Assembly (NCBI GenBank): GCA_036390995.1
Contig: DASWAT010000111.1
Location: forward strand, 378-64,377
Source of the DNA: Actinomycetota bacterium
GTDB lineage: Bacteria; Actinomycetota; UBA4738; HRBIN12
DNA: 64,000 bases
Direction of reading: 5' to 3'
Below are positions 16,966 to 53,842 of this stretch, piece by piece (the stretch's first letter is position 1; each line of letters begins with the position of its first letter). A program made the translations under genes and the position numbers. The notes below the pieces were generated by a model. That model made no database searches. It worked only from the letters and a program-made list of their open reading frames with translations, and was not told the origin of the DNA.

Positions 16966-16995
16966 CATCCGGAGGATCCGCAGTCGGGGGGACGG

Positions 16996-22999: not shown

Positions 23000-23345
23000 G
23001 CTCGCCCTCGTGCAGCTCCTTCAGCAGATGCTCGATCCGCTCTGCCGTCTCCAGGGCTCGATCCTCCTCGAACTCGAGCTCCGGCAGCACCTTCATCCGG
23101 ACCTGGCTCCCCACCACCTGGCGCAGGTGCGCTCGGGCGGACAGGAGCCCGGCCGCCGTGGCCCGTCGCTCGCGTTCGTCACCCATCGCCGTGTAGAAGA
23201 CGCGCGCCCGCCTCAGGTCCGGCGTCATCTTCACGTACGTCACCGTCACGAAGCCGATCCGCGGATCCTTCAGCTTCGGGATCTCCTCGGCGAGGATCTC
23301 GCGGAACTCCTCCGAGACGCGGCTGGGACGGGTTCCCTCGGTCAT
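22992..23345 (-). CDS. rbfA: ribosome-binding factor A
   Basis: 117 aa containing RVSEEFREILAEEI...DPRIGFVTVT...VKM, a KH-like RbfA fold sequence. Confidence 0.8.
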   Translation of the reverse strand: MTEGTRPSRVSEEFREILAEEIPKLKDPRIGFVTVTYVKMTPDLRRARVFYTAMGDERERRATAAGLLSARAHLRQVVGSQVRMKVLPELEFEEDRALETAERIEHLLKELHEGEHE

Positions 23346-30010: not shown

Positions 30011-31615
30011 TCAGGCGTGGGTCACGACGTCGACGGTCTCCTGCCAATCCTGGGTCGGCCCGTCACCGTCGGCCTTCGCGTACTGGTTGATCATCACGAT
30101 CTGCGACGGGTCGGACGGGTTGCGGGCGATGCCGTTGAAGTCGCCCCAGCGCTCGGGCCCCCGGGTCGCCTCGAATCGGGCGGTCCCGGGAGCCAGCTCC
30201 GTGAGCGTCGCCTGGGTCGTCCCCGGTGGGATCTCGGCGGCCCACGCCGACAGGTACTCGTGCGTGAGCGCGCCGGCTCGGCTGTACGTGACGAACAGGT
30301 TGCCGGATCCGTCCGTGGCGACCACCGGCCACCCCGCGTCCGTCTCCGGGGTTCCGACGATGCCCTGGCGGCTCAGCGACGAGGCTCGGAGCCGGCCCAT
30401 CGGCGCCACCTCGTACCACCGGATCGCGGCCTCCGGGTACCCTCCGGGCCGCGTGTCCGGGCGGAGGTTGCGGAAGATGACGTGCGCGGCGTACAGACGG
30501 TCGAGGTCGGCGTCGTAGAAGGCGTTGATCAGCCGCAGGTCGCCGGGGTCCCACCAGGTGTTCGCCTTCTTCAGGCTGCCGTCTCCCTGTGTACCGAACG
30601 GAGAGATGCCCACGTTGGCCACCGGCAGATCGGCGCGCTGGAGCTGGAGGCCCGAGGCTCGCTCCTTCAGCCTCCATACGATGAGGGAAGAGGCCCGTCG
30701 ATCGCGCTCGAAGGACAGGAAGTACTGCATGGCCGGGGCCGTCCCCGCGCTCTGCGCCGGCTGGATGGTGAACGCGGCCGTGCGGTCGGGGTTCCTGGTG
30801 GCCGCCCCGGCGAACCGGTCGAAGGCGGTCGGCTGCGTGCAGTCGTAGAGGCTGGTCTTCGGGAACGAGAGGATCTGGGCGTAGTCGAACGCGAGATGCT
30901 CGAAGTCGAACTGGTTCGTGGTCACGACCACCCGGTCGGCGTCGTAGCCGAGTCCCGGGTAGTCGGCCCACTGGCGGCCGTCCCGCCGGACCTGATCGGC
31001 CTTCATGCGCCGGGCGCACCACGTCGCGGGGTCGTTCGCGGTGGCGTCGGGGACCGTCACCATCTGGATCCAGCTCCGGCGCAGGCCGTCGTTCACCGCC
31101 AGGTACACCAGCACGAACGTCTGTCCGTACGGGTCGTAGACGACCTTCGGGTCGAAGATCTGGGTGCCCGAGGGGTACGTGAAGAACGGCTCGAACGAGG
31201 TGGGGGGTATCACCGGGGTCCCGGTGAGGTCGTACAGGGCGTACGAGGTGTTCACGGCGGTGAGGATCCACTGGGAGCCCATGGCGCCACTCGGATCGGC
31301 CGGCCAGTTCGGCCCGGTCCTGGGGATGGCGTCGAAGTGGAGGCCCGAGACCGGGGTGCGCGGCGAGGGCCGAGCCTCGGTCGCGCGGCCGAGCGGATGC
31401 CGATCCGACGAAACGGGGTAGCTCCCGCGCAGCAGCGGCCGCACCGTCCTCGAGGGCACGATCGACGGTGCGGGGACGAACGTCCGGTGCCAGAGGCGGG
31501 CGGGGGCTGGGTCCCGGGGAACGACGCCTGCGGCGAGCGCCGGCGGGGGCAGCGACAGCAACGACACCGCCGTGCTTGCCGCCAGTGCCAGGCGAAGTGC
31601 TGCAGGTGGACGCAT
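30011..31615 (-). CDS. secreted hypothetical protein (about 534 aa) with an N-terminal signal peptide
   Basis: Signal peptide MRPPAALRLALAASTAVSLLSLPPPALA. The ATG is preceded by AGGAGA at 5 nt. The long Arg-rich upstream extension in the track ORF is likely non-coding. No recognised catalytic motifs; the Gly/Trp/Asp-rich body might be a beta-propeller. Confidence 0.55.
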   Translation of the reverse strand: MRPPAALRLALAASTAVSLLSLPPPALAAGVVPRDPAPARLWHRTFVPAPSIVPSRTVRPLLRGSYPVSSDRHPLGRATEARPSPRTPVSGLHFDAIPRTGPNWPADPSGAMGSQWILTAVNTSYALYDLTGTPVIPPTSFEPFFTYPSGTQIFDPKVVYDPYGQTFVLVYLAVNDGLRRSWIQMVTVPDATANDPATWCARRMKADQVRRDGRQWADYPGLGYDADRVVVTTNQFDFEHLAFDYAQILSFPKTSLYDCTQPTAFDRFAGAATRNPDRTAAFTIQPAQSAGTAPAMQYFLSFERDRRASSLIVWRLKERASGLQLQRADLPVANVGISPFGTQGDGSLKKANTWWDPGDLRLINAFYDADLDRLYAAHVIFRNLRPDTRPGGYPEAAIRWYEVAPMGRLRASSLSRQGIVGTPETDAGWPVVATDGSGNLFVTYSRAGALTHEYLSAWAAEIPPGTTQATLTELAPGTARFEATRGPERWGDFNGIARNPSDPSQIVMINQYAKADGDGPTQDWQETVDVVTHA

Positions 31616-31742
31616 CGATGTCTCCTGAGGGATCGCGGGCGGGGTGAGCGAGACGGTATCCGAAAGGGAGAACGCCGTCCAGTGTCCGGGGTTGTGCGGA
31701 CGTTGACGGCGGCGGCGCCCACACCGCACAATCGTCGCCACG

Positions 31743-31808
31743 ATGAGCTGCGCGATCCACTGGTCCTGGCCTTGGGGCTCGAGGAGCCCGGAGCCGGCGC
31801 GCGCCTGA
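31743..31808 (+). CDS. trp operon leader peptide (21 aa, three Trp codons within five codons)
   Basis: Reads atg agc tgc gcg atc cac tgg tcc tgg cct tgg ggc ..., i.e. MSCAIHWSWPWGSRSPEPARA. It sits in the 269-nt region just upstream of trpE, with a GC hairpin following. Confidence 0.6.
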   Translation: MSCAIHWSWPWGSRSPEPARA

Positions 31809-31836
31809 ACATCGTCACGACAGGTTCGACCGAAGA

Positions 31837-31868
31837 AGCCCCGGGCGGCGCCCGGGGCTTCACGTTGC
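31837..31868 (+). terminator. putative attenuator hairpin between the trp leader peptide and trpE
   Basis: agccccgggcggcgcccggggct forms an 8-bp GC stem, followed by ttcacgtt. The trpE RBS (GAGGAGGA) lies immediately downstream. Confidence 0.4.
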
Positions 31869-31884
31869 CACGAGGAGGACGCAG

Positions 31885-33387
31885 GTGCGGGTTCGACCCG
31901 ACCGCGGGACGTTCGACGGGCTGGGCACCGCTTGGCCGCTCGTTCCGATGTGGACGGAACTGCTCGCCGACGTCTCGACGCCCGTCGGTGTGTTTCCGGC
32001 ACTGGCCTCGGACGGTCCCGGCATCCTGTTGGAGAGCGTGGAGCGCTCGGAGCGGTGGGGGCGGTTCTCGTTCGCGGCCGGCGATCCTGCTGCGATCGTC
32101 CTTGCGGGGCCCGACGGCGTCGAGGTCACCGAGGTGCGCCGTGAGCGACTCCCGGTGGCGGTCCCCGAACCCGGCATGCCGGTTCGGGCCGCGCTTCGAG
32201 CGGTCGCGGACTCCCTGGCGGCCCCGCGATCCTCCGAGCTCCCCTCCCTTACCGGCGGCCTCATGGGCTACCTCGCGTATGAGGCCGCGCGGTTGCTGGA
32301 CGGCCACCCCGCGCCCGCCGTGGCCGATGCGCCGTGCCCGCCGATCGGGCTGTTGGTCGTGGACCGAGCGGTCGTCTTCGACCACTGGCGCCAGCGCTTG
32401 CTTTTGGTCGCCCACGTCCCGCCCGGCGCGTACGACGTCGGCGTGGAGGCGCTTGAGGCGCTCGCGGCGACCGTACGGGCAGCCGCCCCTCCCCCTCCGG
32501 AGCCCTTCCACCCCTTCGACGTGCCAACGGCAGCCACGGACGAGGGGAGTCCGAACATGGACGACGCACGGTACCGGCGGATCGTCGCCGACTTCAAGGA
32601 TCACATCCTCGCCGGTGACATCTACCAGGCAGTCCCTTCGCGGCGCGTGTCGTTCCCGGCAGCGGCCGGCGGCTACCCCGTCTACCGCCGGCTCCGCGTG
32701 ACGAACCCTGCGCCCTACATGTTCTTCGTGCGGATGCTCGGCATGGAGCTCGCAGGCTCCTCGCCCGAGCCGCTCGTGCGGGTCGAGGGTCGGCGGGTGT
32801 CTACCCGACCCATCGCCGGCACGCGGCCTCGAGGACGAACCGAGGTCCGCGACCGGCTCCTCGAGCACGAGCTCCTGGCCGACCCGAAGGAACAGGCCGA
32901 ACATGCGATGCTGGTGGATCTGGCCCGGAACGACCTCGGCCGCGTGTGCCGTCCGGGCAGCGTTCGCCCCACGGAGCTGATGGTCGTCGAACGGTTCTCG
33001 AAGGTCATGCACATCGTGAGCACGGTGGAGGGCGAGCTGGCGGAGGGACAGGACGCCTTCGATGCCCTCGCCGTCACGTTCCCGGCGGGGACCGTGACCG
33101 GCGCGCCGAAGCGCCGGGCCATGGAGCTGATCGCGGATGCGGAGCCCACACCGCGCGGGCCGTACGCGGGGGCGGTCGGTTACCGGACCTTCGCCGGGGA
33201 CCTCGACTTCTGCATCACGATCCGGACCGCGGTGGTGAGCGGTGGAACCGCCCACGTCCAAACCGGCGCCGGCGTCGTGGCCGACTCGGACCCGGATGCC
33301 GAGCTCCGCGAGACGAAGGCGAAGGCGGCGGGGCTCCTGCCCGCCGTGGTCGCCGAGCCGGCGGAGATGGGAGACACGCCCGCATGA
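31885..33387 (+). CDS. trpE: anthranilate synthase component I
   Basis: 500 aa in the chorismate-binding enzyme family, with LLESVERSERWGRFSF near the N-terminus and a GAVGY...FCITIRTAV C-terminal region. The upstream Trp leader supports TrpE over PabB. Confidence 0.8.
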   Translation: MRVRPDRGTFDGLGTAWPLVPMWTELLADVSTPVGVFPALASDGPGILLESVERSERWGRFSFAAGDPAAIVLAGPDGVEVTEVRRERLPVAVPEPGMPVRAALRAVADSLAAPRSSELPSLTGGLMGYLAYEAARLLDGHPAPAVADAPCPPIGLLVVDRAVVFDHWRQRLLLVAHVPPGAYDVGVEALEALAATVRAAAPPPPEPFHPFDVPTAATDEGSPNMDDARYRRIVADFKDHILAGDIYQAVPSRRVSFPAAAGGYPVYRRLRVTNPAPYMFFVRMLGMELAGSSPEPLVRVEGRRVSTRPIAGTRPRGRTEVRDRLLEHELLADPKEQAEHAMLVDLARNDLGRVCRPGSVRPTELMVVERFSKVMHIVSTVEGELAEGQDAFDALAVTFPAGTVTGAPKRRAMELIADAEPTPRGPYAGAVGYRTFAGDLDFCITIRTAVVSGGTAHVQTGAGVVADSDPDAELRETKAKAAGLLPAVVAEPAEMGDTPA

Positions 33388-35110: not shown

Positions 35111-35560
35111 TCACGCGCCGAACACGTGGAAGACGACCTGGCGCGCCTTCGGCTCGTCCATCTCGAACAGCAACAGCCGCTGCCACCGACCGAACATCGG
35201 CTCACCGGAGGTCACGGGGATCGCATGCGAGGAGGCCGAGAGCAGCATCGACTTCACGTGCGAATGGCCGTTGCGGCGCTCGTGGCTCTCGTCCAGGTTC
35301 TGCGTCCGGCGGTCGAGATCGTCGTGCGCGTAGTACGCGTCCTCCGGCACCAGGTGGAGCAGACGGTTCCGGAAGTCCTCCAGCGCGCCCTCCTCCCACT
35401 CGTTGATGAGGAGCGCGCACGTGGTGTGGGCGCAGAACGCGACGGCGGCGCCCTCGGTGACCCCGGAGTCCTTGATGGCGCGCTGCAGGTCCTCCGTGAG
35501 GTCCACGTAGCCGTACCGGCTGGGAACCTCCACCTCGACGGTTACGGTCGACGACTTCAC
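35111..35560 (-). CDS. YjbQ/UPF0047 family (secondary thiamine-phosphate synthase-like) protein
   Basis: 149 aa. The GTG start is preceded by AAGGAGGG and overlaps the histidine-kinase stop (GTGA). The YjbQ signature reads [11 protein letters not shown]...[12 protein letters not shown]. Confidence 0.7.
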
Positions 35561-36918
35561 GAGGCCCTCCTTGTCTCGGCCGCGGGTGCGACCGGTAGCT
35601 CGAACGCGAACGTGCTCCCCTTGCCGACCTCGCTGTCGGCATGGATCCGGCCGCCGTGCGCCTCCACGACGGAGCGTGCGATGGCCAGGCCGATCCCGGT
35701 CCCGCCGTCCTTCTGGGAGCGCGACGGATCTACCCGGTAGAACCGCTCGAACAATCGCGGGAGGTGCTCCGGCGCGATGCCGGGGCCGGTGTCCGTGACG
35801 GACACCTCGCAGGACCCGTTCGCGCGGCGTGCCGACACCACCACGTGACCTCCCGAAGGGGTGAACCGCACTGCGTTGTCCAACAGGTTGAAGAGCACCT
35901 GGTGCACCCGCTCGCGGTCCACGAAGATCGGCGGCAAGTCGTCGGGGACGCGATCGTCGATGGCGACGCCGCGTCCCGACCGCGCGACCTCGATCTCGGA
36001 CAGCACCTGCGACACCAGCGGCCGGAGCGATACCGCCTCCCGCTGGAGCGGCATCTCGCCGGACTCCAGGCGTGAGAGGTCGAGCAGCCGTTCCACCAGC
36101 CGGCCCAGGCGCTCCGATTGCGAAAGCATCACCTGCAGCGTCTCGGGGGCAGGCGGTTCCACGCCGTCGAGGAGGTTCTCCAGGTGCGCGCGGAGCGCCG
36201 AGATCGGCGTCTTCAGCTCGTGGGACACGTTCGCCACCAGGTCGCGGCGCAGCTGCTCGAGGCTCTCGAGCTCGTCGCTCATGCGGTTGAACGCGGCGGC
36301 CAGCTGGCCCACCTCGTCGCGCGAATCCGTGTGCACGCGCTGGCCGTAGTCGCCCCGCTCCATCTTGCGGGCGGCCTGGGCCATGTCGCGCAGCGGCTGC
36401 GTCATGCCCCGCGCGAGCCACCGGGCCAGGCCGAGCGCGACCGCCGCCGCCAAGGCGCCCGCCAGGAGGAACTGCCACCAGAAGTCGGCCAGGAACCGGA
36501 ACGTCGCCCCCACCCTGTCGAACAGCCCGCGTCCCACCGCCGGACGCACCGCGTACACGAGATGGTCGAGCGCTCCGCCGGCCACGACCGGAACGACCGC
36601 ATACTGCAGCTCCGGCGTGGTCCCCACGTGCACGAGCCCGTCCCGGAACCGAGGCAGCGCCGCCGGCGGAGTTCCGGATAAGACGCTCCCGTCCATCCCG
36701 ACGGCCACGACCGTCACGTTCTCCGGCGCGCGCGCCAGGGTCCCCGCAGCGTACCGGCGGGCTGCCGAGAGCAGCTGCAGGCGGTCGGCGTTCTGAGAGG
36801 TTCCTCGGAGCGCGTAGCCCAGCATGAGGAAGATGAGGACGACCGTGATCCCCACCGCGAACACGATGGTCGAGCCGAGCTTCGCGCGGATCGTGGGAAG
36901 CCGATCGAGCGGTCTCAT
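35557..36918 (-). CDS. two-component sensor histidine kinase (TM-HAMP-HisKA-HATPase)
   Basis: H-box (SHELKTPISAL), and N, G1 and G2 boxes (DTGPGIAPEHLPRLFERF, GGTGIGLAIARSVVEAHGG). It has two TM segments. The ATG overlaps the response-regulator stop (ATGA). Confidence 0.85.
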   Translation of the reverse strand: MRPLDRLPTIRAKLGSTIVFAVGITVVLIFLMLGYALRGTSQNADRLQLLSAARRYAAGTLARAPENVTVVAVGMDGSVLSGTPPAALPRFRDGLVHVGTTPELQYAVVPVVAGGALDHLVYAVRPAVGRGLFDRVGATFRFLADFWWQFLLAGALAAAVALGLARWLARGMTQPLRDMAQAARKMERGDYGQRVHTDSRDEVGQLAAAFNRMSDELESLEQLRRDLVANVSHELKTPISALRAHLENLLDGVEPPAPETLQVMLSQSERLGRLVERLLDLSRLESGEMPLQREAVSLRPLVSQVLSEIEVARSGRGVAIDDRVPDDLPPIFVDRERVHQVLFNLLDNAVRFTPSGGHVVVSARRANGSCEVSVTDTGPGIAPEHLPRLFERFYRVDPSRSQKDGGTGIGLAIARSVVEAHGGRIHADSEVGKGSTFAFELPVAPAAETRRAS

Positions 36919-37613
36919 CCGGACTGGTCCTGGAAGGCGTACCCGACGCCGTGGACGGTCCGGATGAACCTCGGCTCCGCACCGTCCTCGCCCAGCTTGC
37001 GCCGGATCCGCGCCACGTGCGAATCCACCACGCGGCCGCCCGCGTAGTCGCGGTAGCCCCACACCCGGTCCATCAGCTGCTCCCGGGTGAAGACCACGCC
37101 GGGCTCCCGGGCCAGCGTGAGCAGGATCTCGAACTCGAGGGGCGTCAGTTGGACCTCGGTGTCGTCGACCGTGACGCGGCGGCGGGACGGATCGACGACC
37201 AGCGCCCCGCGCTCGAGCGACTCGGCCCCGGTCGTGGAGCGGATCCTATCGACCCGCCGAAGGATCGCCCGGACCCGCACCGCCAGCTCGCGGAGCGAGA
37301 AGGGTTTCGTCAGGTAGTCGTCGGCACCCACCGCGAACCCGGCCACCTTGTCGGCCTCCTCGGTCCGGGCGGTCAGCATGAGCACCGGAACCCACCGCTC
37401 GCGCTGGATCTCCTTGCAGACCTCCAGACCGTCCATCCCCGGAAGCATGAGATCCAGCACGACGAGGTCGGGGTGGATCTCGGCCGAGGCCCCGATGGCC
37501 GCGGGGCCGTCGCCGGCCACGACCACCCGGTACCCCTCGCTCTCCAGGCGGGCTCGAACCGCCTCGGCGATCGCCTCCTCGTCGTCCACGACGAGCACGG
37601 TCTGCTGGGACAC
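36915..37613 (-). CDS. OmpR-family response regulator
   Basis: Receiver domain (LVVDDEEAIAEA, DLVVLDLMLPGMDGLEVC) plus a winged-helix trans_reg_C domain (TVHGVGYAF). Confidence 0.9.
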   Translation of the reverse strand: MSQQTVLVVDDEEAIAEAVRARLESEGYRVVVAGDGPAAIGASAEIHPDLVVLDLMLPGMDGLEVCKEIQRERWVPVLMLTARTEEADKVAGFAVGADDYLTKPFSLRELAVRVRAILRRVDRIRSTTGAESLERGALVVDPSRRRVTVDDTEVQLTPLEFEILLTLAREPGVVFTREQLMDRVWGYRDYAGGRVVDSHVARIRRKLGEDGAEPRFIRTVHGVGYAFQDQSG

Positions 37614-37698
37614 GCCAGCAATCGTATCCGCAGCGTGTGGCAGACCCCCGGGGGGCGTGTTGAGAACTTGTGTCAGCGTGCGCCCCCGGCGCTCCGGC

Positions 37699-38820
37699 CT
37701 AGGGTCTCAGGGGGAGCGGCTTGGCGAAGTCGAGGTAGATCACGGCCACGAAGAGGAGCATGAAGAACGCGGCGACGACGGCCGAGATGGGGATGAGCTT
37801 GCGCACGTCGATCTTCTTGCCCCGTACCTTCTCGATGGCCAGGACGGCGATGTGGCCCCCGTCGAAGGGCGGGACGGGGAGCAGGTTCAGCAAGCCGATG
37901 AACACGTTCACGAACCCGAAGATCCACAGGATGTCCCAGAACCGCTGCCCCGAGGCGACGTCGCCGGTCAACTGGGACAGCCCCACGGGGCCGGAGACAT
38001 CGGTCGGCTGGCGCTGGGCGTTCGTGAACAGCAGGTCGGCGATCCGGCCGAGCCCCTGGGGCCCGAAGAGTCGCCCGAGGCTCTTCACGGAGTCGGTCAC
38101 CGACGTGCCCACCAAGCGGACGCCGCCCGTGAACCCGCCGACCACGCCCGGCGTCTCGCGGGCCTGGGCCAGGAGGACGCCGATCCGTCCGACCTTCCTC
38201 CCATCCACGGTGGAGAGCACCGGCGTGAGGCTCACCTCGAACACACGACCGCCGCGCTCGATCCGAAGCGGCACCGGCTCGCCGACGTGACGCCGCGTGT
38301 AACGCACGAGCTGAAGATCGGTGGGATCCGAGATCCCGTCGACACCGACGATCCGGTCGCCGGGACGGAGCCCGGCGACGGCCGCCGGGGACGTCTGCCC
38401 TCCGAGCTTCGGCGCGACGTCCGCAACCAGGGGGCTGCGGACCGTCGGCTGGCCCACGGCCCCGAGCCAGATCGCGAACAGCAGGAAGGCGAGCACGAAG
38501 TGCGTCGCCGGTCCCGCGAAGACCACCAGCGCACGCTGCCAAGCGGGCTTCGCCCCGTAGGTGCGCGGCAGGTCCTCGGGCGCGATCTGCTCGAATGGAT
38601 TCATCCCCGCGATGCGCACGTAGCCGCCGGCGGGGATCCACTTGAACCCGTACTCGGTCTCCCCCCGGCGCGTCGACCAGATGCGCGGGCCGAACCCCAC
38701 GAAGAACTCGTCGACCTTGAACCCGAACCGCTTGGCCACGCCGAAGTGGGCGGCCTCGTGCACGATCACCACGAGGATCAGCGAGACGAAGAACACGATC
38801 TCGCCGACGGTGCCGGCCAT
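37699..38820 (-). CDS. rseP: site-2 protease RseP/Rip1 (M50 zinc metalloprotease with PDZ)
   Basis: HEAAH zinc motif lies in TM1, a PDZ segment (GLRPGDRIVGVDG) follows, and the LDGG motif (PPFDGGHI) is present. It is adjacent to dxr and ispG, as in mycobacteria. Confidence 0.85.
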   Translation of the reverse strand: MAGTVGEIVFFVSLILVVIVHEAAHFGVAKRFGFKVDEFFVGFGPRIWSTRRGETEYGFKWIPAGGYVRIAGMNPFEQIAPEDLPRTYGAKPAWQRALVVFAGPATHFVLAFLLFAIWLGAVGQPTVRSPLVADVAPKLGGQTSPAAVAGLRPGDRIVGVDGISDPTDLQLVRYTRRHVGEPVPLRIERGGRVFEVSLTPVLSTVDGRKVGRIGVLLAQARETPGVVGGFTGGVRLVGTSVTDSVKSLGRLFGPQGLGRIADLLFTNAQRQPTDVSGPVGLSQLTGDVASGQRFWDILWIFGFVNVFIGLLNLLPVPPFDGGHIAVLAIEKVRGKKIDVRKLIPISAVVAAFFMLLFVAVIYLDFAKPLPLRP

Positions 38821-38833
38821 CAGCCCCTCGCGA

Positions 38834-39994
38834 TCATCGGGCCTCGATGATCTCGGCCGCCCGGCGACGGGCCCACGAGTCCGCCCGCTCCAGGTTCACC
38901 ACCGAGACCACCGACGAGGGCGCCTCGTGCTCGTCGACCACGGCCTGGACCACCTCGACGATGCGCGTGAGGGGGATCTTGCCCTCGAGGAACGCCATGA
39001 CCGCGACCTCGTTGGCCGCGCTCATGACGGCGGGGAAGGTGAGAGCCAGCTCGCCCACGCGGTAGGCCAGGTCGATCGCGGGGAACGCCTCGCGGTCGAC
39101 GGGTTCGAACGTGAGCTTCTTGTCGGCCAGCGGCACCGGCTCGATGCCGGTGGCCAGACGCTCCGGCCACGCCAGCGCGAGCTGGATCGGCAGGCGCATG
39201 TCCGGCAGCGCGAACTGCGCCAGCATCGTGCCGTCCCGGAACTCGGTAAGCGCGTGCACGATCCCCTCGGGATGCAGCACAACGTGGATCTGCGAGTACT
39301 CGAGGTTGAACAGGTAATGGGCTTCGATCACCTCGAGCCCCTTGTTCATCAACGTGGCCGAGTCGATCGTGATCTTCGGGCCCATCTGCCACACGGGGTG
39401 CGCCAGCGCCTCCTTGACCGAGGCCCGGGCGAGCTCGCTGCGGGTCCAGCCCCGGAAGGGACCGCCCGAGCCCGTGAGGATCACCCGTTTCACGTCTTCC
39501 CGCCGCTCGCCTCGCAGCAGTTGCGCGAGCGCGGCGTGTTCGGAGTCCACAGGGACGAGCCGCTCGGGCTCGCCCTTGATGAGGTCGGTGACCAGCTCGC
39601 CCCCGATGACCAGGCTCTCCTTGTTGGCGAGGGCCAGGACCTTACCGCTCTGCAGAGCTGCCAGTGTGGGCGCCAGACCGGCGGCGCCGACCAGTGCGTT
39701 CACCACCATGTCGGCTTCGACGTCGCGCGCCAGGCGCTCGGCGGCGTCCGGGCCGACCAGGACCTCCACGTTCGGGACGTTCGTGCCGAGCATCTCCCGG
39801 AGGTCCTTGGCGGCCTCCTCGTCGGCCATCGCCACGAACGGCGGGAGGAACTCCCGGATCTGCCCGACGAGGAGCTCGTGGTTCGTGCCTGCCGACAGCC
39901 CGACGACCTTGAACCGATCCGGATTGCGCCGGACCACGTCGAGGGCCTGGGTTCCAACCGACCCCGTCGATCCGAGGATGATGAGCGAGCGCAT
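38834..39994 (-). CDS. dxr: 1-deoxy-D-xylulose 5-phosphate reductoisomerase
   Basis: Begins MRSLIILGSTGSVGTQALDVV, with NADPH-binding and DXR catalytic regions. The ATG is preceded by GGAAGGA. Confidence 0.9.
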   Translation of the reverse strand: MRSLIILGSTGSVGTQALDVVRRNPDRFKVVGLSAGTNHELLVGQIREFLPPFVAMADEEAAKDLREMLGTNVPNVEVLVGPDAAERLARDVEADMVVNALVGAAGLAPTLAALQSGKVLALANKESLVIGGELVTDLIKGEPERLVPVDSEHAALAQLLRGERREDVKRVILTGSGGPFRGWTRSELARASVKEALAHPVWQMGPKITIDSATLMNKGLEVIEAHYLFNLEYSQIHVVLHPEGIVHALTEFRDGTMLAQFALPDMRLPIQLALAWPERLATGIEPVPLADKKLTFEPVDREAFPAIDLAYRVGELALTFPAVMSAANEVAVMAFLEGKIPLTRIVEVVQAVVDEHEAPSSVVSVVNLERADSWARRRAAEIIEAR

Positions 39995-44673: not shown

Positions 44674-45642
44674 TCAGCGGCGGCGGAGCTTCACCGGCTG
44701 CTCCGGCACGTCCGGCTCACCCGCGATCCAGCGATACGTGAACGCCGCCAGGAAGACGACGTGCAGGACGTTCGCGAGCAGCGCGTACACCCAGGTGGCC
44801 AGGGAGGGATTGACCGTGAGATCGCTCGAGCTGGGTGCGAAAGCAACCAGGAGCGGCAGCGACAGGAACACGTACAGCATGGCGAACAGCAGGTTGCGGC
44901 TGCCCGGCATCAGCGACGCCCGGGCCGCTCGGCGCATCGTCTCCTGTAGGCGCCGCTGCTCCCGGATGGCGGCGGGCGGCACATAGACGAAGAAGAACAT
45001 CGCGGCCACCAGGATGGCCACGGAACCGAAGAATCCCAGCCCGGGACCGAGGAACGGCAAGATCACCGTCCCGGCGATCATCAAGCTCATGGCCAGCAGG
45101 TTCACGGCCAAGACCGTGGGGAACGCGCGAAGGCCGCGGAGGGCCCCTCCTCCCGGACCGCCCTCCGCCTCCAGATCCTGCACCACGATCCCGGTCACGA
45201 TGGATACGAACAACGCGCGCACCGCCAGGAACACTGCCCCCCACACGAGACCCGCCACGCCGAAACCGAAGATGGCCACGCCGTTGTAGGTGTCCCAATA
45301 CGTGCCGATCGGAGGGAGCGCCGTGACGTAGACGAGGCGACCCGCGGGCCCCTCCAGGCCCAGAGCCACCATCCCGAGCCAGCCCCCGAGCACGAACAGC
45401 AGCGTGACCAGGAGCAGGACCGGAGACGACCCCACGACGATGAGGCCTCGGCCGAGGCTGCGGGAGATCGATGGCAGCCGGGACTCGCCGGTGCCGCGCG
45501 ACAGCCATCCCAGGAACCCGGGGACCTCGGGGCGTTCCCGCTCGTGCTCCTTCGTCGCCAGCGCTTTCGAGCCGGCGCCGGACGCCGATTTCGACCGGTG
45601 GGAGCCGGCGGAGCTGCGGCCCTTGCGCCGCTTCCTGCTCAC
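44674..45642 (-). CDS. polytopic integral membrane protein, hypothetical
   Basis: 322 aa with a basic N-terminus, then about 7 hydrophobic helices. Its ATG overlaps the upstream PQQ-repeat gene stop (ATGA). Confidence 0.55.
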   Translation of the reverse strand: MSRKRRKGRSSAGSHRSKSASGAGSKALATKEHERERPEVPGFLGWLSRGTGESRLPSISRSLGRGLIVVGSSPVLLLVTLLFVLGGWLGMVALGLEGPAGRLVYVTALPPIGTYWDTYNGVAIFGFGVAGLVWGAVFLAVRALFVSIVTGIVVQDLEAEGGPGGGALRGLRAFPTVLAVNLLAMSLMIAGTVILPFLGPGLGFFGSVAILVAAMFFFVYVPPAAIREQRRLQETMRRAARASLMPGSRNLLFAMLYVFLSLPLLVAFAPSSSDLTVNPSLATWVYALLANVLHVVFLAAFTYRWIAGEPDVPEQPVKLRRR

Positions 45643-46994
45643 GGCGCTTCCCCTTCCTCGTCAGCGTCGAGCCCCTCCCACGCCTCCCACGCCGGCGGGC
45701 CGATCCGGTTCGAGGCCAGGCGGATCGGAACGAGCAGCAGCGCGAGGACGATCACGAACGCGATGGCGTAGTTGCCGAACAGACGACCCGCGTCCAGGCG
45801 GGTGGGCGAGGGGACGTCGAGGAGCGTCGCGCTCGGATCGTGGACGTAGGCGACCAGGCCCGCGTCGTTCCCGCCCTTGGAGGCCACGACGAGGTTCGGG
45901 GTCAGGGCGATCGGACCGATCAGCCCCGGGGAAGGATCGCTCTGCCACACGAGGTTGCCCGAGGTCGTGTCGACCGCCACGAGCCGTCCGTCGTTCAACC
46001 CGACGAGGACCGTCCCGCGGGAGACGACCGGCGCGCTTCGGACCACGAGCTGGTTGAACTGGTAGTCCCAGACCCGGGCACCCGTGGCCGGGTCCAGGCG
46101 GTAGAGCCCTCCGGACACGTCCACCGCGTAGACGCCGTCCGAGGTGACGGCCGGGGCCGTCACCGGCGAGAACAGGGACAGCGCCAATCGGCTCCACCGC
46201 TCCGTGCCGTCCTCAGCGGAGAACGCATGGATCGACCGATCGGCGGCACCGGCCACCACCGTGCCGTCGGCTACGGAGGCAGCCGATCCGGTCGAACCGG
46301 CGACGGACGGCGTGAACTCCCAATCCTTGCGTCCGCTCGCCTCGTCGAGTGCGAGAAGTTGGGCCCGCTGGTTGACGGTGTCACGCCCGGCGACGAAGAC
46401 GCGGCCCCCGGCGACCGCAGGCGGCGCAAGCACGTCGCCGAGCGTCTTCGCGGTCCACGTGATCGATCCGTCGGACACCGAGACCGCATAGACGTTCCCG
46501 TCGTCGTCGGCGACGAACGCGGTGGCGCCGTCCACGGCGATGCCGCTGCGACTGGGAGCCTTCAGCGCGGTCCGCCAAAGCTCGGTCCGATCCTTGAGGC
46601 TGACGGCGACGAGGCCGACGCCGGCATCCTTCGTCCCGTCGGTGAACAACAGGACGGTCCTGCCTCCCACCGATGCCACCGCGGGCATCGCCAGCGGACC
46701 GCCGGTCCTGTCGAGCTTCCAGACCTGCCGACCGGTGGCCAGGTCCACGCCGTACACGGCCGTGGTCCCCACGGTGACGACCGTTCCGCCCTGGACGACC
46801 GGCCCCGAGACGGTGCCCTCGGAGGGCCGGAAGGTCCACGCCTGCCGGTAGGGCGGCAACGGCCCGGAGGCCAACGATCCCTCATGGGCGGCGCCACCTT
46901 GGAACTGCGCCCAACCGGCTGTGGACGACTGGCTCAGCGCGGGCGCGGCGCCGAGCAAGATCATGGCCGACGCGACGAGCGCGGCGTTCGACAT
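45639..46994 (-). CDS. PQQ-like beta-propeller repeat protein, secreted with a C-terminal membrane anchor
   Basis: N-terminal signal-like region, then repeated ...G.V.A.D..TG...W motifs (8-bladed PQQ/BamB-like). A C-terminal TM (YAIAFVIVLALLLVPI) and an acidic tail follow. Confidence 0.65.
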   Translation of the reverse strand: MSNAALVASAMILLGAAPALSQSSTAGWAQFQGGAAHEGSLASGPLPPYRQAWTFRPSEGTVSGPVVQGGTVVTVGTTAVYGVDLATGRQVWKLDRTGGPLAMPAVASVGGRTVLLFTDGTKDAGVGLVAVSLKDRTELWRTALKAPSRSGIAVDGATAFVADDDGNVYAVSVSDGSITWTAKTLGDVLAPPAVAGGRVFVAGRDTVNQRAQLLALDEASGRKDWEFTPSVAGSTGSAASVADGTVVAGAADRSIHAFSAEDGTERWSRLALSLFSPVTAPAVTSDGVYAVDVSGGLYRLDPATGARVWDYQFNQLVVRSAPVVSRGTVLVGLNDGRLVAVDTTSGNLVWQSDPSPGLIGPIALTPNLVVASKGGNDAGLVAYVHDPSATLLDVPSPTRLDAGRLFGNYAIAFVIVLALLLVPIRLASNRIGPPAWEAWEGLDADEEGEAP

Positions 46995-49727: not shown

Positions 49728-51128
49728 GTGGACGGCTTCGAGCTGGACCTCGTGGTCACCCTCGGTCTCGGTGACAACAGCTACGTGCTGTCCTCTGGCG
49801 GGGAGGCGATCCTCGTGGACCCCCAGCGCGACGCGGAGCGACTCCTCGGCGCAGCCGAGGACCGCCGCGCCGAGGTGAGGTACGTGCTGGAGACGCACGT
49901 CCACAACGATTACGTCTCGGGCGCCGCCGAGGTGCGGGCGTCGACCGGCGCGGCGGTGGTGGGGCCAGCCGCCGCGCGATACCGGTTCCCGTACGCGCCG
50001 ATGGCAGAAGACGACGAGCTCCGGATCGGCGCGGTCACGCTGGTGGCGATGGAGACGCCCGGCCACACCCCGGAGCACCTCGCCTACGCCCTGATCCCGG
50101 ACGGCCGGGACGGGCCGGTCGCGGTGTTCACGGGGGGAAGCCTGATCGTCGGGAGCGCGGGGCGAACCGACCTGCTCGGTCCGGAGTGGACCGACCGGCT
50201 GACCCGCGCGCAGTTCAGGACCCTTCGGCGCCTCGGGTCCCTCCCCGGATCCGCCCAGGTCCTACCCACCCATGGAGCGGGGAGCTTCTGCGCCACGGCG
50301 GCGCCGCAGGAGGACCGGACCTCGACCATCGAGCGGGAGCTGGCGTCGAACCCCGTCCTGGCAGAGCCGGACGAAGAGGCGTTCGTGCGCAGGCAGCTGT
50401 CGGGGCTCATGGCCTTCCCCACCTACTACGCGAACATGGCGCCGATCAACCGCGCGGGGCCGAGCGTGTCCGGCGGCGTGCCGATCACCGAGCCGATCTC
50501 ACCGCAAGCGGTGGCGGGGCACGCGGCCGAAGGCGCCTGGATCGTGGACGTGAGGGACGGCTCCGACTTCGCCGCCGCGCACATCCCCGGCTCGCTCAAC
50601 ATCCCGCTCGAGGAGTCGTTCGCGAGCTACGTGGGGTGGCTGCTGCCGTTCGACGACCCGCTCGTCCTGGTTGCGCCCGAGCCGCCGGGCGAGGCCGTGC
50701 ACGAGGCGACCCGCCAGCTGTTCCGGATCGGGTACGAGCGGGTCCTCGGCTCCTTGCGGGGCGGCATCGAGGCGTGGCGGCGCTCGGGGCGGGAACTCCG
50801 CGCCTACCCCGTGGCCACGCTGGACCAGCTGCTCGCCCTCGCCGGCCGGGAGGTGTCGAGGATCCTCGACGTCCGTCAGGCTCCCGAGTGGGAGGCGGGG
50901 CATCTGGACGGCAGCCGGCACGTGTTCGTCGGCGACCTCCCGGAACGGCTCGATGGGTTCGAGCACGACCGAGAAGTGGTGGTGGCGTGCGCCAGCGGAT
51001 ACCGATCGTCGATGGCGGCGAGCCTCCTGGATCGCGCGGGCGTGCCCGTGCGAGTGGTGGCGCGGCGCGGCGTGCCGGACGCGCTGCGGCGGCGGGCCGG
51101 GCTGCGCTCCCTTCAGGACTCGCCGTAG
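49728..51128 (+). CDS. MBL-fold metallo-hydrolase fused to two rhodanese domains (CstB-like persulfide dioxygenase-sulfurtransferase)
   Basis: N-terminal metallo-beta-lactamase motif (ETHVHNDY, the HxHxDH equivalent). Two rhodanese modules follow, the last with the active-site loop CASGYRS. Confidence 0.7.
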   Translation: MDGFELDLVVTLGLGDNSYVLSSGGEAILVDPQRDAERLLGAAEDRRAEVRYVLETHVHNDYVSGAAEVRASTGAAVVGPAAARYRFPYAPMAEDDELRIGAVTLVAMETPGHTPEHLAYALIPDGRDGPVAVFTGGSLIVGSAGRTDLLGPEWTDRLTRAQFRTLRRLGSLPGSAQVLPTHGAGSFCATAAPQEDRTSTIERELASNPVLAEPDEEAFVRRQLSGLMAFPTYYANMAPINRAGPSVSGGVPITEPISPQAVAGHAAEGAWIVDVRDGSDFAAAHIPGSLNIPLEESFASYVGWLLPFDDPLVLVAPEPPGEAVHEATRQLFRIGYERVLGSLRGGIEAWRRSGRELRAYPVATLDQLLALAGREVSRILDVRQAPEWEAGHLDGSRHVFVGDLPERLDGFEHDREVVVACASGYRSSMAASLLDRAGVPVRVVARRGVPDALRRRAGLRSLQDSP

Positions 51129-52417
51129 ACGATCGGCAGGAACGTGCTCACCCAGCGGTCCCACTCGCGAGGATCCCGGTACACGTAGTAGTCGCGGGCT
51201 CCCCCGCCCGCATCGGAGCCTTCCGCGTTCAGCCGGGCGAGCTCCGGGCCCGGGAACACCAGCGGGCTGTTCGCCACCTCGCGATCCCCGAACTCACCGG
51301 CGATGATCGCGCGGGCGTCCGGGACGGGGGTGATGTACCAGACCCAGTCCGCGATCATCGCGGCAACCTTGGGCTGGTACACGAAGTCGATGTACTCCAT
51401 CGCATCCACCGGATGCCGCGCTCCGGCCGGGATCATCATGTTGTCGGTCCAGAGCATGGCGCCCTCGTCGGGCACCACGAAGCGCATCTCCGGATGGCCC
51501 AGCGCGTTGATCTGGAAGATGTCGCCGGACCAGGCCATCGTGGCCCAGGTGTCCCCCCGAGTGAGCGCGTCCACGTATCCCTGGTCGTAGTAGCGGGGAT
51601 GGACCACGTCGCGCTGCCCTCGGAGGGCGTCGGCCGCCTGCGCCCAGTCCTGCGGCGTGGAGGCGGCCGGGTCGACGCCGATGGCGAGCAGCCCGAAGCT
51701 CCCCAGCTCGGTGGTGTCGCTCATCATGCCGACCCTGCCCTGCAGGGCCGGATCCCACAGATCCCGGACGCTGCGCGGCTCCCGCCCGAGGGCCTCCGTC
51801 GCTCTCGGGCTGAACGCGATCCCCGTGAGACCCGACTGCCAGGCGACGGTGTACCGGTTCCCCGGATCCCACGATGGGTCCTGGACCAGCGGGCCGGCGT
51901 ACACGGCGAAGTTCCCCAGGTAGGAGTGGTCGAGCGGGATCAGCCACCCCGACTCCATCATCTCGGTCACCTCGGGGCCGTTCGTGAGGACGATCAGGTC
52001 GTAGCCGATGCTGTTCCCCGCGCTGAGCTGCGGCCGGATCTCCTCGAAGAACGACGGCGTATCCTTGATCGGCCGGTAGTAGTTGACCCGGATCCCGGTC
52101 TCGCGCGTGAAGAGTTCGAGCGACGGGCGGCGGTCGAAATGGCGGTCGATGTAGTACGGCCAATTCGCGAAGTCCAGGACGCCGGCCCGCGACCGCTGCG
52201 ACCACCAGCGATCCCAGTTCGGTGAGGGCGAGGGCCGTGCCGTGCGGCCGGGCTCGCACGCCGCAGCCAACCCCGTCAGCGCCAGCGAGCCGGCACCCAG
52301 GCCCGCGCGCCTCAGCAGCTCGCGCCGGGTGAGAGCGGGGTCCCACCGCGACCCAGAACGCGCGGCGTCTTCCCTCGAGCTCTCGCGCCGGCCGGTCTGG
52401 CCTTCTGGGGGTTGCAT
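51113..52417 (-). CDS. polyamine (PotD/PotF-type) ABC-transporter substrate-binding lipoprotein with Tat signal, orphan
   Basis: Tat motif (TRRELLRRAGLGAGSLALTGLAAAC) with a lipobox Cys, followed by a PotD-like body. The start is preceded by GGGAGGGG. No permease or ATPase genes occur nearby. Confidence 0.7.
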   Translation of the reverse strand: MQPPEGQTGRRESSREDAARSGSRWDPALTRRELLRRAGLGAGSLALTGLAAACEPGRTARPSPSPNWDRWWSQRSRAGVLDFANWPYYIDRHFDRRPSLELFTRETGIRVNYYRPIKDTPSFFEEIRPQLSAGNSIGYDLIVLTNGPEVTEMMESGWLIPLDHSYLGNFAVYAGPLVQDPSWDPGNRYTVAWQSGLTGIAFSPRATEALGREPRSVRDLWDPALQGRVGMMSDTTELGSFGLLAIGVDPAASTPQDWAQAADALRGQRDVVHPRYYDQGYVDALTRGDTWATMAWSGDIFQINALGHPEMRFVVPDEGAMLWTDNMMIPAGARHPVDAMEYIDFVYQPKVAAMIADWVWYITPVPDARAIIAGEFGDREVANSPLVFPGPELARLNAEGSDAGGGARDYYVYRDPREWDRWVSTFLPIVYGES

Positions 52418-53842
52418 CGCGCCCCTCCCTCGCCTCATCGCACACGCCCGTGGGCGCGATCGCGACCAAGCGTCGCCGGTTCCTTTCGGGTTCGGCAGTC
52501 GGGGTTTTCCCCCAGGGCGCGAGGGACTCCCAGCTGCCATACACTTGTCAACTTGAGCCGCGCGAGGATCCTTCTCAGGCGAGATCCGAGGTATCGGTCC
52601 CGCTACCGGTTGATCACAAGGCTGGCCGAGGACGCTTCGGGCAGCCTGTGGACCGCGGTGCTCACGGGCCTCGGCAAACCCGTGACGGTTCACCTCCTGT
52701 CGGGTCCCGAGACCCTAGATCCGACCTTCGGCCACGACTTCTCGGAGCGGATGCAGGCCATGTTCCCCTGGCCCGACCATCCGAACGTCGCCGCCGTCTT
52801 CAACTACGGCCGCGACGAGCGAGCGCGGGCCTTCTTCGTCCTCATGGAACCGCTCACGGGTGAGACCCTCGGCAGGCGGATCGAGCGCTCCCCCTGCCTA
52901 CCGCCACCCGAGTCGCTCCGGATCGCAGCGGCGGTTGCCCGGGGCCTCGAGGTCGTCCACGGCCGAGGGATCGCCCACGGCCGGCTGCGTCCGGACAGCG
53001 TACTGCTCACCCGGGACGGCGGCGTGAAGCTCCTGGGTCTCGGCGTTCCTCCGGATCGGCCGGGCCGGGACACGCCCGAGGACGACATCGCGGCGCTCGC
53101 CGGCGTCGTCCACCAGATGCTCGTGGAAGATCTGGACGCGCGGGCCCTCGACCGAACGACCGACCTGCCTCCGCGGGCGGCCGGCCCACCCTTCCCCGGC
53201 CTTCCCGCCGAGGTCCGGCAGCTGCTCGAGCGGTGCCTGGACCCCACCCCGACCGTTCGGCCGACGGCGTCCGACCTGGCCAGCGCCCTGGGGGGCGCGG
53301 CGCACCCCCTGGCCACCCGGTCCGTCCGGTCGCCCGGCTCCGAGGATGCGCGGCCGGTGACCCAGGCGCGGGATCCCGGGACGGCTCCCACTGTCGCCGG
53401 GGCGGCCGTGGGCCCGGTCGTCGAGGACGACGCGGTGGCCGTCGAGGACGACACCGTGGCCGCGGTCCCCGACTCGACCTCGACGGAGCGCCCCGAGCGT
53501 CGGCGGCGCCGGCCCGTGGGACGGTGGATCGCCGGATTCGCGATCTTGAGCGCGATGGCGGTGACCGTCTCCATCGTTCTGGCGTCGCGAGGAGGCGAGG
53601 ATCCGCTTCCCGACCGGCGGACGCCTCCTGCCTTCGAGGGAACCACGGTCCCGGACGTCCTCGGGTTGTTGCTGGCAGAGGCGGAGGATCTTCTCGGGAA
53701 GGCCGGTCTCCAGGTGACCGGGGTCCGGGAGGTCGCGGGCAAGCCGGGGTTCGTCGTGAGGACCGATCCGACCCCCGGGGAGGCCGTTCGCATGGGTGCC
53801 TCCGTCACGGTCTTCGTCGGGCGATCACCGCCCTCGGGGTGA
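52412..53842 (+). CDS. PknB-like pseudokinase with a TM helix and a single C-terminal PASTA domain (start uncertain)
   Basis: Kinase-like fold with a degenerate catalytic loop HGRLRPDSVLL (HRD to HGR) and GLG in place of DFG. The beta3 Lys is replaced (VTVH). A TM helix follows (WIAGFAILSAMAVTVSIVLA), then a PASTA domain (TVPDVLGLLLAEAEDLLGKAGLQVTGV...VTVFVG). The TTG start in the track overlaps the divergent binding-protein start and is probably too far upstream. Confidence 0.6.
   Translation: MHRAPPSPHRTRPWARSRPSVAGSFRVRQSGFSPRARGTPSCHTLVNLSRARILLRRDPRYRSRYRLITRLAEDASGSLWTAVLTGLGKPVTVHLLSGPETLDPTFGHDFSERMQAMFPWPDHPNVAAVFNYGRDERARAFFVLMEPLTGETLGRRIERSPCLPPPESLRIAAAVARGLEVVHGRGIAHGRLRPDSVLLTRDGGVKLLGLGVPPDRPGRDTPEDDIAALAGVVHQMLVEDLDARALDRTTDLPPRAAGPPFPGLPAEVRQLLERCLDPTPTVRPTASDLASALGGAAHPLATRSVRSPGSEDARPVTQARDPGTAPTVAGAAVGPVVEDDAVAVEDDTVAAVPDSTSTERPERRRRRPVGRWIAGFAILSAMAVTVSIVLASRGGEDPLPDRRTPPAFEGTTVPDVLGLLLAEAEDLLGKAGLQVTGVREVAGKPGFVVRTDPTPGEAVRMGASVTVFVGRSPPSG

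Follow-up and report, generated by a model that had tools for sequence, protein, structure and literature searches.

The window, by which we mean the whole stretch of 64,000 nucleotides analysed here (positions 378 to 64,377 of contig DASWAT010000111.1, assembly GCA_036390995.1), comes from an actinobacterial genome and has a G+C content of 71%. Around 52 kb it carries two divergently transcribed genes: one on the forward strand, encoding a membrane protein with a degenerate Hanks-type kinase domain and a single PASTA domain (hereafter the pseudokinase), and one on the reverse strand, encoding a solute-binding lipoprotein of the PotD/PotF family (hereafter the binding protein). The features of both genes and of the region between them are listed in Table 1. 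In the following we describe the two proteins, the conservation of their pairing throughout one clade of pseudokinases, and the possibility that they form a sensory module.

Table 1. Features of the divergent pseudokinase/binding-protein locus, in window coordinates
Feature	Position	Strand	Basis and remarks
PotD/PotF-family solute-binding lipoprotein gene, orphan	51113..52417	-	434 aa; identical to P0028
Tat (twin-arginine translocation) signal peptide (TRRELLR) and lipobox (LAAAC, Cys54) of the binding protein	52256..52417	-	translation, alignment
Divergent intergenic region, 135 bp, presumably with both promoters	52418..52552	.	sequence
-10-like hexamer TACACT (putative)	52540..52545	+	7 nt upstream of TTG 52553; inference only
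PASTA pseudokinase gene, 429 aa from TTG 52553	52553..53842	+	open reading frame list, Pfam, family alignments, AlphaFold2
Kinase-like domain, cytoplasmic, residues 17-253	52601..53311	+	motif read-out, AlphaFold2, Foldseek
Pro/Ala-rich juxtamembrane linker, disordered, residues 254-323	53312..53521	+	pLDDT <50; ends in ERRRRRP (positive-inside)
Single transmembrane helix, residues 325-344	53525..53584	+	AlphaFold2 helix; hydrophobic stretch WIAGFAILSAMAVTVSIVLA
Single extracytoplasmic PASTA domain, residues 361-425	53633..53827	+	motifs TVPDVLG and VVRTDPTPGEAV, clade-specific

The pseudokinase matches both the Pkinase (36.7 bits; cutoff 31.7) and the PASTA (41.6 bits; cutoff 23.2) families of Pfam, and in a phmmer search against the PDB it retrieved Mycobacterium tuberculosis PknA first (E 3.6e-16), with Streptococcus pneumoniae StkP and PknB also among the best matches. 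An initial annotation of the locus had described every catalytic signature as degenerate (HGRLRPDSVLL for the HRD motif, GLG for DFG and a His for the beta3 Lys), and the alignments with PknA and PknB agree with that description. Along the ungapped PknA alignment VAVK is replaced by VTVH, HRDVKPGN by HGRLRPDS and DFG by GLG, and the hmmalign read-out gives, in PknB numbering, the substitutions K40 to His, E59 to Arg, D138 to Arg, K140 to Arg, N143 to Ser and D156 to Gly. In the numbering of the window protein this places H47 at the beta3 Lys, H142-G143-R144 at HRD, S149 at the catalytic-loop Asn and G162-L163-G164 at DFG. The Gly-rich loop is replaced by EDASGSLW in the alignment with PknB, and the activation loop is short and without an APE motif in the MAFFT alignment with the same protein. 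Rescue of the catalytic residues by an indel was ruled out, since the ungapped PknA, the MAFFT/PknB and the hmmalign alignments agree and no indel restores any of the residues; the only Lys nearby, K42, lies in the beta2-beta3 turn and is not conserved in the family.

An AlphaFold2 model, computed from a 14-sequence family alignment, folds both the kinase-like domain and the PASTA domain with high confidence (predicted local distance difference test score, pLDDT, of ~90 and ~95, respectively), with a disordered linker and a transmembrane (TM) helix between them. A Foldseek search against the PDB ranked PknA and PknB at the top (E 1e-16, TM-score ~0.7 on the target), and model and search together confirm, as a prediction, that the Hanks kinase fold is intact around the lost catalytic residues. 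Of the TM helix and the single extracellular PASTA domain that had been proposed for the protein, the former is seen in the AlphaFold2 model and the latter by Pfam and AlphaFold2 alike, and the PASTA domain is placed outside the cell because an ERRRRR stretch precedes the TM helix. Judged by its sequence, the window protein is a genuine pseudokinase in which a single TM helix is combined with a single PASTA domain.

The protein belongs to a family. Within 1.84 billion cluster representatives searched with HMMER, 14 proteins were found at E <= 1e-30, and a motif read-out of 176 sequences (the 150 best representatives and 26 homologues from the first search) identified about 30 as pseudokinases of one design with a single C-terminal PASTA domain. 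The design comprises: Arg at the beta3 position, HG[AG] for HRD, Thr/Ser for the catalytic-loop Lys/Asn, a DFG or DLG motif that is usually intact (consensus at beta3 Lys, alphaC Glu, HRD Asp, loop Asn and DFG Asp: R, R/Q, G/A, S, D), a short activation loop, and EDxLGxLW in place of the Gly-rich loop. The window protein, with its His and GLG, is more degenerate than this consensus (Arg, DFG/DLG). Four residues of the structural core (W33, H136, H142 and D178) are invariant and the PASTA domain is highly conserved across the ~30 representative clusters; the members share 30-40% identity and are free of frameshifts. All traceable members come from metagenomes or from metagenome-assembled genomes (MAGs) of Actinomycetota, in clusters of 1-4 sequences, one of them lying on the complete 3.45-Mb MAG chromosome OY969934.1. 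Among proteins with intact catalytic residues, those that come closest are single-PASTA kinases of ~420-460 aa, also metagenomic, at ~30% identity. A search of 185,579 GTDB genomes with the single pattern V[VM][RA]TDPTPG, which samples the taxonomic range in genomes poorly, returned one true family locus and two four-PASTA Streptomyces kinases.

The divergently encoded partner had been annotated as a Tat-exported, lipobox-containing binding protein of the PotD/PotF type, and this assignment stands. It has the type II periplasmic binding-protein fold of the SBP_bac_8/6/1 group (Pfam SBP_bac_8, 88 bits, followed by SBP_bac_6 and SBP_bac_1), its best NCBIfam matches are PotD (94 against a cutoff of 582) and PotF (81 against a cutoff of 636), both far below equivalog level, and the closest solved structures are putrescine/spermidine-binding (7xjm, 3ttl and 1pot). 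Five residues that cover the twin-Arg motif and the lipobox Cys (R31, R32, L35, A53 and C54) are invariant in an alignment of 13 sequences. When the alignment with Escherichia coli PotD (1POT) is read against the positions that we take, from the PotD literature, to be its ligand contacts, 8 of 12 are identical (W34, Y37, D168, E171, W229, W255, D257 and Y293), while T35, E36 and Y85 of PotD are replaced by Pro, Tyr and Pro. Seven of the eight matches are invariant in the 13 homologues and the position of E171 stays acidic (E or D); the Asp of the PotF-type WxGD motif is present and equally invariant. The polyamine pocket therefore looks intact, as far as can be predicted from these residues.

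The binding protein had also been described as lacking a transporter partner in the window, and none came to light: not one open reading frame (ORF) in the 64 kb contains both a Walker A and an LSGGQ motif, and no permease or ATPase of the ATP-binding cassette (ABC) type occurs among the ORFs scanned with Pfam, a scan that spans ~9.8-64 kb apart from a few stretches, among them 20.0-22.0 kb and 22019-23020. The initial annotation was to fail if permease and ATPase genes for the binding protein lay just outside the window with conserved linkage; at the paired loci that were read as DNA, no ABC ATPase lies within 6-8 kb. The wider family of the binding protein was surveyed at 80 metagenomic loci encoding homologues with 42-60% identity. 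At no fewer than 36 of these 80 loci the gene for the homologue is directly preceded by a PotA-type ATPase gene in the same orientation, and because of this association in the more distant homologues (42-55% identity) the paired binding proteins appear to derive from components of polyamine transporters with which the link was lost. A pseudokinase adjoins only the two closest of the 80 homologues; other orphans among them adjoin unrelated genes, for example those for FemAB, an aminotransferase, a major facilitator superfamily protein or a beta-lactamase-like protein.

The search for homologues of the pseudokinase and for their genomic neighbourhoods revealed that the divergent pair is present in all eight examined lineages of one neighbour-joining clade: the window itself, the P0002/P0029 contig, L002 (also L003 and L005), L004, L009/L010, L089, L090/L091 and L094-L096. 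The pseudokinases with a binding-protein neighbour are P0002, P0155 (L002), the L004 protein, those of L009/L010, P0149, P0151 and P0309. The genes beyond the pair are unrelated and differ in every lineage; the outer neighbours include dprA and xerC, genes for an iron permease and an acyl-CoA dehydrogenase, soxBDAG, PAP2/DAGK genes, and genes for a cold-shock protein and an amidohydrolase. One of the lineages, L094 (P0309), had been selected on no other ground than its match to a paired-clade profile and proved to be paired, so that the prediction made from the profile held. Four lineages outside the clade (L008, L092, L093 and the P0298 contig) are unpaired, the pseudokinases that share the architecture and lack a binding-protein neighbour being P0150, P0148, P0298 (from the P0160 cluster) and P0196. 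In the neighbour-joining tree, which is without support values, the paired proteins form one clade and the unpaired proteins all fall outside it. The two partners are co-inherited: their pairwise identities correlate with r = 0.92 (six pairs), the binding proteins (56-84% identity) evolving much more slowly than the pseudokinases (30-68%). Because the divergent pair recurs in eight of eight lineages while the flanking genes differ, it is likely that the two genes are functionally linked in some way.

The distribution of sequence constraint over the pseudokinase sets the paired clade apart as well. Conservation within the protein is highest in its PASTA domain (53% identity; kinase-like domain, 35%), whereas the canonical single-PASTA kinases show the reverse (33% for the PASTA domain and 59% for the kinase domain); in the paired clade the constraint has thus shifted away from the kinase part and on to PASTA. 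The PASTA domains of this clade moreover carry a signature of their own, TVPDVLG and TDPT[PQ]GEAV, where the unpaired clade has MPDLRGL and T.PGLGQ.

In its topology the pseudokinase equals the PASTA Hanks kinases (PknB/PknA, StkP and Bacillus subtilis PrkC; model NF033483), with a cytoplasmic kinase fold, a linker, a TM helix and an extracellular PASTA part, so that both the Hanks fold and the combination of TM helix and PASTA domain are present. It differs from these kinases by the loss of the beta3 Lys, the alphaC Glu, the HRD Asp and the catalytic-loop Lys/Asn and, in the window protein, also of the DFG Asp (H, R, R, S and G at the five diagnostic positions), by the replaced Gly-rich loop and the short activation loop that lacks APE, by a single PASTA domain where the characterised kinases have three or four, and by the pairing of its gene with that of a binding protein. 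Its score with NF033483 (97 bits) falls far below the equivalog cutoff of 450. The arrangement had been called unlike that of characterised PASTA kinases, and indeed it is absent from the Atlas of bacterial Ser/Thr kinases and from the 2025 review of pseudokinases.

Seven families of bacterial pseudokinases have been described (ActPs1, ActPs2, ActPs3/MviN, GLW, DLHK, CP1 and DYD), for none of which a PASTA domain is reported, only the canonical KAPD family having one (bioRxiv 10.1101/2025.01.12.632604; PMC12599244). According to the same papers, ActPs1 has lost all three catalytic residues and the G-helix, frequently has a C-terminal PQQ domain and lacks the DFG Asp in 100% of cases; ActPs2 shows HRD Asp to Asn, a DFG deletion, a 32-aa beta3-alphaC insertion and an activation-loop insertion of ~250 aa; ActPs1, ActPs2 and GLW are all without the DFG Asp; and in ActPs3 the MviN/MurJ flippase carries the pseudokinase domain as a fusion, with an MviN-type fold and an attenuated activation loop (bioRxiv 10.1101/2025.01.12.632604; PMC12599244). 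Membership of ActPs2, ActPs3, GLW, DLHK, CP1 or DYD was rejected since, in a comparison by description only, the published motif and indel definitions do not fit, and membership of ActPs1 appears unlikely on the same basis. What the present family shares with the described ones is that it consists of actinobacterial Hanks-type pseudokinases with a C-terminal TM segment. The beta3 Lys to Arg change of ActPs2 is matched at the level of the family consensus only, and by description the two differ in that here Gly, Ala or Arg stands in place of the HRD Asp, DFG is mostly intact, the insertions are absent and the activation loop is short. The alphaF-alphaH segment, which is short relative to PknB, recalls the G-helix deletion of ActPs1, but the pseudokinase has no PQQ domain and most members of its family keep the DFG Asp, unlike ActPs1, ActPs2 and GLW. 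With respect to ActPs3, the protein has no MviN domain and no MviN chain occurs among the 60 listed PDB matches and the 50 listed Foldseek matches. By these published descriptions the family and architecture, known from metagenomes of Actinomycetota only, appear to be new, and so does the pairing of a binding protein with such a receptor.

Two known systems couple a binding protein to a membrane signalling partner in a comparable way. In the NspS-MbaA system (Vibrio cholerae / Sinorhizobium meliloti) a PotD homologue reports extracellular polyamines via the periplasmic domain of its partner (PMC8079147, PMC5646818, PMC9993111), and in the GlnH-GlnX-PknG system (Mycobacterium/Corynebacterium) the occupancy of a lipoprotein is relayed by a non-enzymatic membrane protein to Ser/Thr-kinase signalling (PMC6069109, PMC9769921). 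With NspS-MbaA the locus has in common a transporter-less binding protein of the PotD type that is encoded beside a membrane signalling protein; there, the partner is a GGDEF-EAL enzyme with a periplasmic domain of its own, encoded in an operon of Gram-negative hosts, whereas here it combines a non-catalytic kinase fold with a PASTA ectodomain, the two genes point away from each other, and an actinobacterial Tat lipoprotein serves as the binding protein. The likeness to GlnH-GlnX-PknG lies in the actinobacterial host, the solute-binding lipoprotein and the non-enzymatic membrane partner, but GlnH belongs to another binding-protein family and binds amino acids, GlnX has four TM segments and no kinase fold, and PknG is encoded in the same operon, whereas here no active kinase is linked, apart from one that is two genes away in L090. 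From PotD/PotF of E. coli, with which it shares the fold family, the eight PotD contact residues and the WxGD Asp of PotF, the binding protein differs by its Tat export and lipid anchor, by the absence of potABC nearby and by scores below equivalog level. An orphan binding protein beside a membrane signalling protein, as in sensors of this type, is conserved here in eight of eight lineages, in divergent orientation. The module resembles, by these comparisons, a PASTA receptor kinase in its topology and NspS-MbaA or GlnH-GlnX in its logic, and is a member of neither.

By analogy with NspS-MbaA or GlnH-GlnX-PknG, the module could be a binding-protein-dependent transmembrane sensor with a non-catalytic transducer, the most economical reading and one that we prefer tentatively and rate as plausible, if somewhat short of probable. 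It is suggested by the combination of an anchored binding protein with an intact pocket and no transporter nearby, a PASTA neighbour that looks obligate, and a dead kinase domain, and further by the constraint on the PASTA domain, which exceeds that on the kinase-like domain, and by the clade-specific PASTA signature. The raised conservation of the PASTA domain is the one hint, and an indirect one, that the two proteins may touch. The membrane-anchored binding protein would capture a polyamine-like cationic amine and would, in a ligand-dependent manner, dock on the PASTA ectodomain or be released from it, one PASTA domain on a short stalk being the only part of the pseudokinase that is predicted to be extracytoplasmic. 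A conformational or oligomeric change would then cross the membrane, and the dead kinase domain, which itself would phosphorylate nothing, would serve as a scaffold or allosteric partner, for instance of a catalytically active kinase of the Hanks type or of some other protein in phospho-signalling. In a more specific version, which we consider rather doubtful, the PASTA domain would have been repurposed as a dock for the polyamine-loaded lipoprotein instead of for peptidoglycan or lipid II, and the dead kinase would relay the occupancy. We infer binding-protein-dependent signalling here, and with it the class of ligand, a contact between the partners, the direction in which the signal runs and the module's output, from an entirely genomic case in uncultured organisms.

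Several observations weigh against a sensor. The genes are divergent and not co-operonic, unlike nspS-mbaA and glnH-glnX, and no natural fusion of a binding protein and a pseudokinase was found, the longer family members having only longer linkers. No partner kinase, FHA protein or phosphatase was found among the Pfam-scanned ORFs of the window, and a canonical kinase is linked to the pair only at L090. The pseudokinases of L008, L092, L093 and the P0298 contig keep the architecture without a binding protein, so that the receptor can work without one. In addition, a potABC operon may be present elsewhere in the genome, and the sample is small and wholly metagenomic, with a tree that has no support values.

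Among the alternatives, the one that survives best is that the binding protein is an ordinary polyamine-uptake component serving a distant PotABC, the pseudokinase being an independent envelope protein with which it is co-regulated; the divergent arrangement would be kept by shared regulatory DNA, or the pseudokinase would modulate the transporter or its expression. We regard this as unlikely. In its favour, the family is transporter-derived, with PotA directly upstream in at least 36 of the 80 homologues, the binding protein has kept its polyamine pocket, the gene arrangement is divergent and not operonic, and the association of other orphans of the family with unrelated genes indicates that orphan status alone is common. 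It is harder to reconcile with the preservation of the pair in all lineages of the clade while the surroundings change, with the absence of ABC components within 6-8 kb of the paired loci read as DNA, and with the fact that the most constrained part of the partner is the extracellular PASTA domain and not a cytoplasmic domain.

Alternatively, the pseudokinase could be a cell-wall scaffold, its PASTA domain binding lipid II or muropeptides like those of PknB and StkP, and the binding protein an incidental, if long-lived, syntenic neighbour inherited along with it; the pseudokinase would then support or regulate the synthesis of the wall non-catalytically, in the way that the pseudokinase domain of MviN does with FhaA. 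PASTA kinases are the closest relatives of both domains, sister clades have the same architecture without the binding protein, and MviN (family ActPs3) provides a wall-related precedent among pseudokinases. The sensing of peptidoglycan fragments that the initial annotation suggested for the PASTA domain is nevertheless only an analogy with PknB, and we judge this alternative improbable, as the pair is conserved though the surrounding synteny is not, the PASTA signature of the paired clade differs from that of the unpaired clade, and the MviN pseudokinase is missing from the listed sequence and structure matches mentioned above. That the gene is a decaying, non-functional remnant of a PknB-like kinase would agree with the loss of all catalytic motifs and with a degeneracy beyond that of the family consensus, but is very improbable, and a pseudogene was rejected, given the full-length ORF with a coding-type G+C content at third codon positions (GC3 0.83), the confidently modelled fold, the invariant core residues, the highly conserved PASTA domain and a family without frameshifts.

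The activators of bacterial Hanks-type receptors are a long-standing question and bacterial pseudokinases have barely been explored experimentally. With a PotD-like protein whose polyamine pocket is recognisable, the module offers a PASTA receptor that lacks catalysis an input that is defined and testable, and it adds to the catalogue of bacterial pseudokinases a family and an architecture so far seen only in metagenomes, which should be of interest to those who study Ser/Thr signalling in bacteria. Should the pairing be functional, the role of PASTA domains is not confined to sensing peptidoglycan, and signalling of the NspS-MbaA/GlnH-GlnX type extends to kinase-fold receptors of Gram-positive bacteria. 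Were docking on the PASTA domain to prove true, the module would represent a new class of binding-protein-dependent receptor, would for the first time assign an input to a PASTA pseudokinase, and would tie extracellular polyamines to Ser/Thr-phospho-signalling in Actinomycetota.

The start codons of the two genes had been annotated as overlapping. This is an artefact of taking the longest ORF (476 aa for the pseudokinase and 526 aa for the binding protein) and was rejected: with realistic starts the genes do not overlap and are separated by ~135 bp. For the binding-protein gene the start is most likely ATG 52417, because this codon is preceded by a GGAGGG Shine-Dalgarno sequence and is the start used by NCBI (434 aa). 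For the pseudokinase gene TTG 52553 is the most likely start, because it keeps the RYRL beta1 motif that is conserved in the family and that would be cut by the NCBI start (TTG 52610, 410 aa, model P0001); it is supported further by the TAnnnT hexamer 7 nt upstream, as in several relatives. A TAnnnT hexamer is also found 6 nt ahead of the pseudokinase ATG in three lineages (L002, L004 and L009/L010), and this spacing suggests that the pseudokinase mRNA is leaderless; L089, which has a Shine-Dalgarno leader, and L090, with a 27-bp tandem duplication that spans the start, deviate. In the middle of the intergenic region (52462-52476) lies an inverted repeat, GCGAC-N5-GTCGC, labelled terminator-like by the scan, which could, given its position, be an operator; no counterpart was evident at the other loci. 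The promoter scan found no E. coli-type promoter consensus in the intergenic region, and no robust operator or promoter block was shared by the intergenic regions of related loci.

At some of the related loci the flanks are of interest by themselves. Those of L002 (1-17311) and L004 (1-17281) are rich in genes for amine and one-carbon catabolism, encoding an amine oxidase, a dimethylglycine-oxidase-like FAO_M/GCV_T protein, the sarcosine oxidase SoxBDAG, an aldehyde dehydrogenase and OpuAC, and have a YbaK-like tRNA_edit gene just downstream of the binding-protein gene; the catabolic genes give a weak hint as to the ligand class. In L090 a canonical Pkinase protein of 620 aa is encoded two genes from the pair (906-2768, minus strand), the only such case among the paired loci, and it is possible that this kinase is the active partner there.

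A second case of a solute-binding protein beside a membrane kinase-like protein had been noted in the window at 16 kb (16030-18696, plus strand), where the gene for a binding protein of the OpuAC type (glycine-betaine family, 165 bits) directly abuts that for a 576-aa membrane protein with an Arg-rich N-terminus, a weak PAP2 match, a small kinase-like domain and a C-terminal TM helix. The adjacency is real, but it does not repeat the pseudokinase/binding-protein system, because the small kinase-like domain, with weak matches to APH, RIO1, Pkinase and Kdo, keeps LAHRDIKPANLMV and VIDVFF and is apparently catalytically competent (HRDIKPAN retained). Going by these motifs, the 576-aa protein does not count as a pseudokinase; nor is it related to the module found at 52 kb.

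The pair itself is embedded in a housekeeping stretch of a kind that is common in Actinomycetota, with ffh, rimM, trmD, lepB, rnhB, yraN, a comM-like Mg-chelatase gene and dprA on one side, then the pseudokinase gene (+), the binding-protein gene (-) and a metallo-beta-lactamase-rhodanese gene (+), and xerC, a sigma factor gene, rpsB, tsf, pyrH and cdsA on the other side. The metallo-beta-lactamase-rhodanese gene (49728-51128, plus strand) fuses a metallo-beta-lactamase and two rhodanese domains in a persulfide-dioxygenase-like protein; it runs towards the binding-protein gene, and the two share 16 bp at the 3' end of the latter. No Pfam family was matched at E <= 1e-4 by two long ORFs (44674-45660 and 30011-32125, both on the minus strand) whose GC3 is of the coding type; one of them lies between rpsB and a BamB-like PQQ-repeat gene and the other overlaps the 5' region of a gene for a chorismate-binding enzyme. 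Beyond these loci, signalling genes were seen in the window only as a trio by ispG (35557-38895, minus strand), encoding a HAMP/HisKA histidine kinase, an OmpR-type response regulator and an RseP-like M50 site-2 protease with a PDZ domain.

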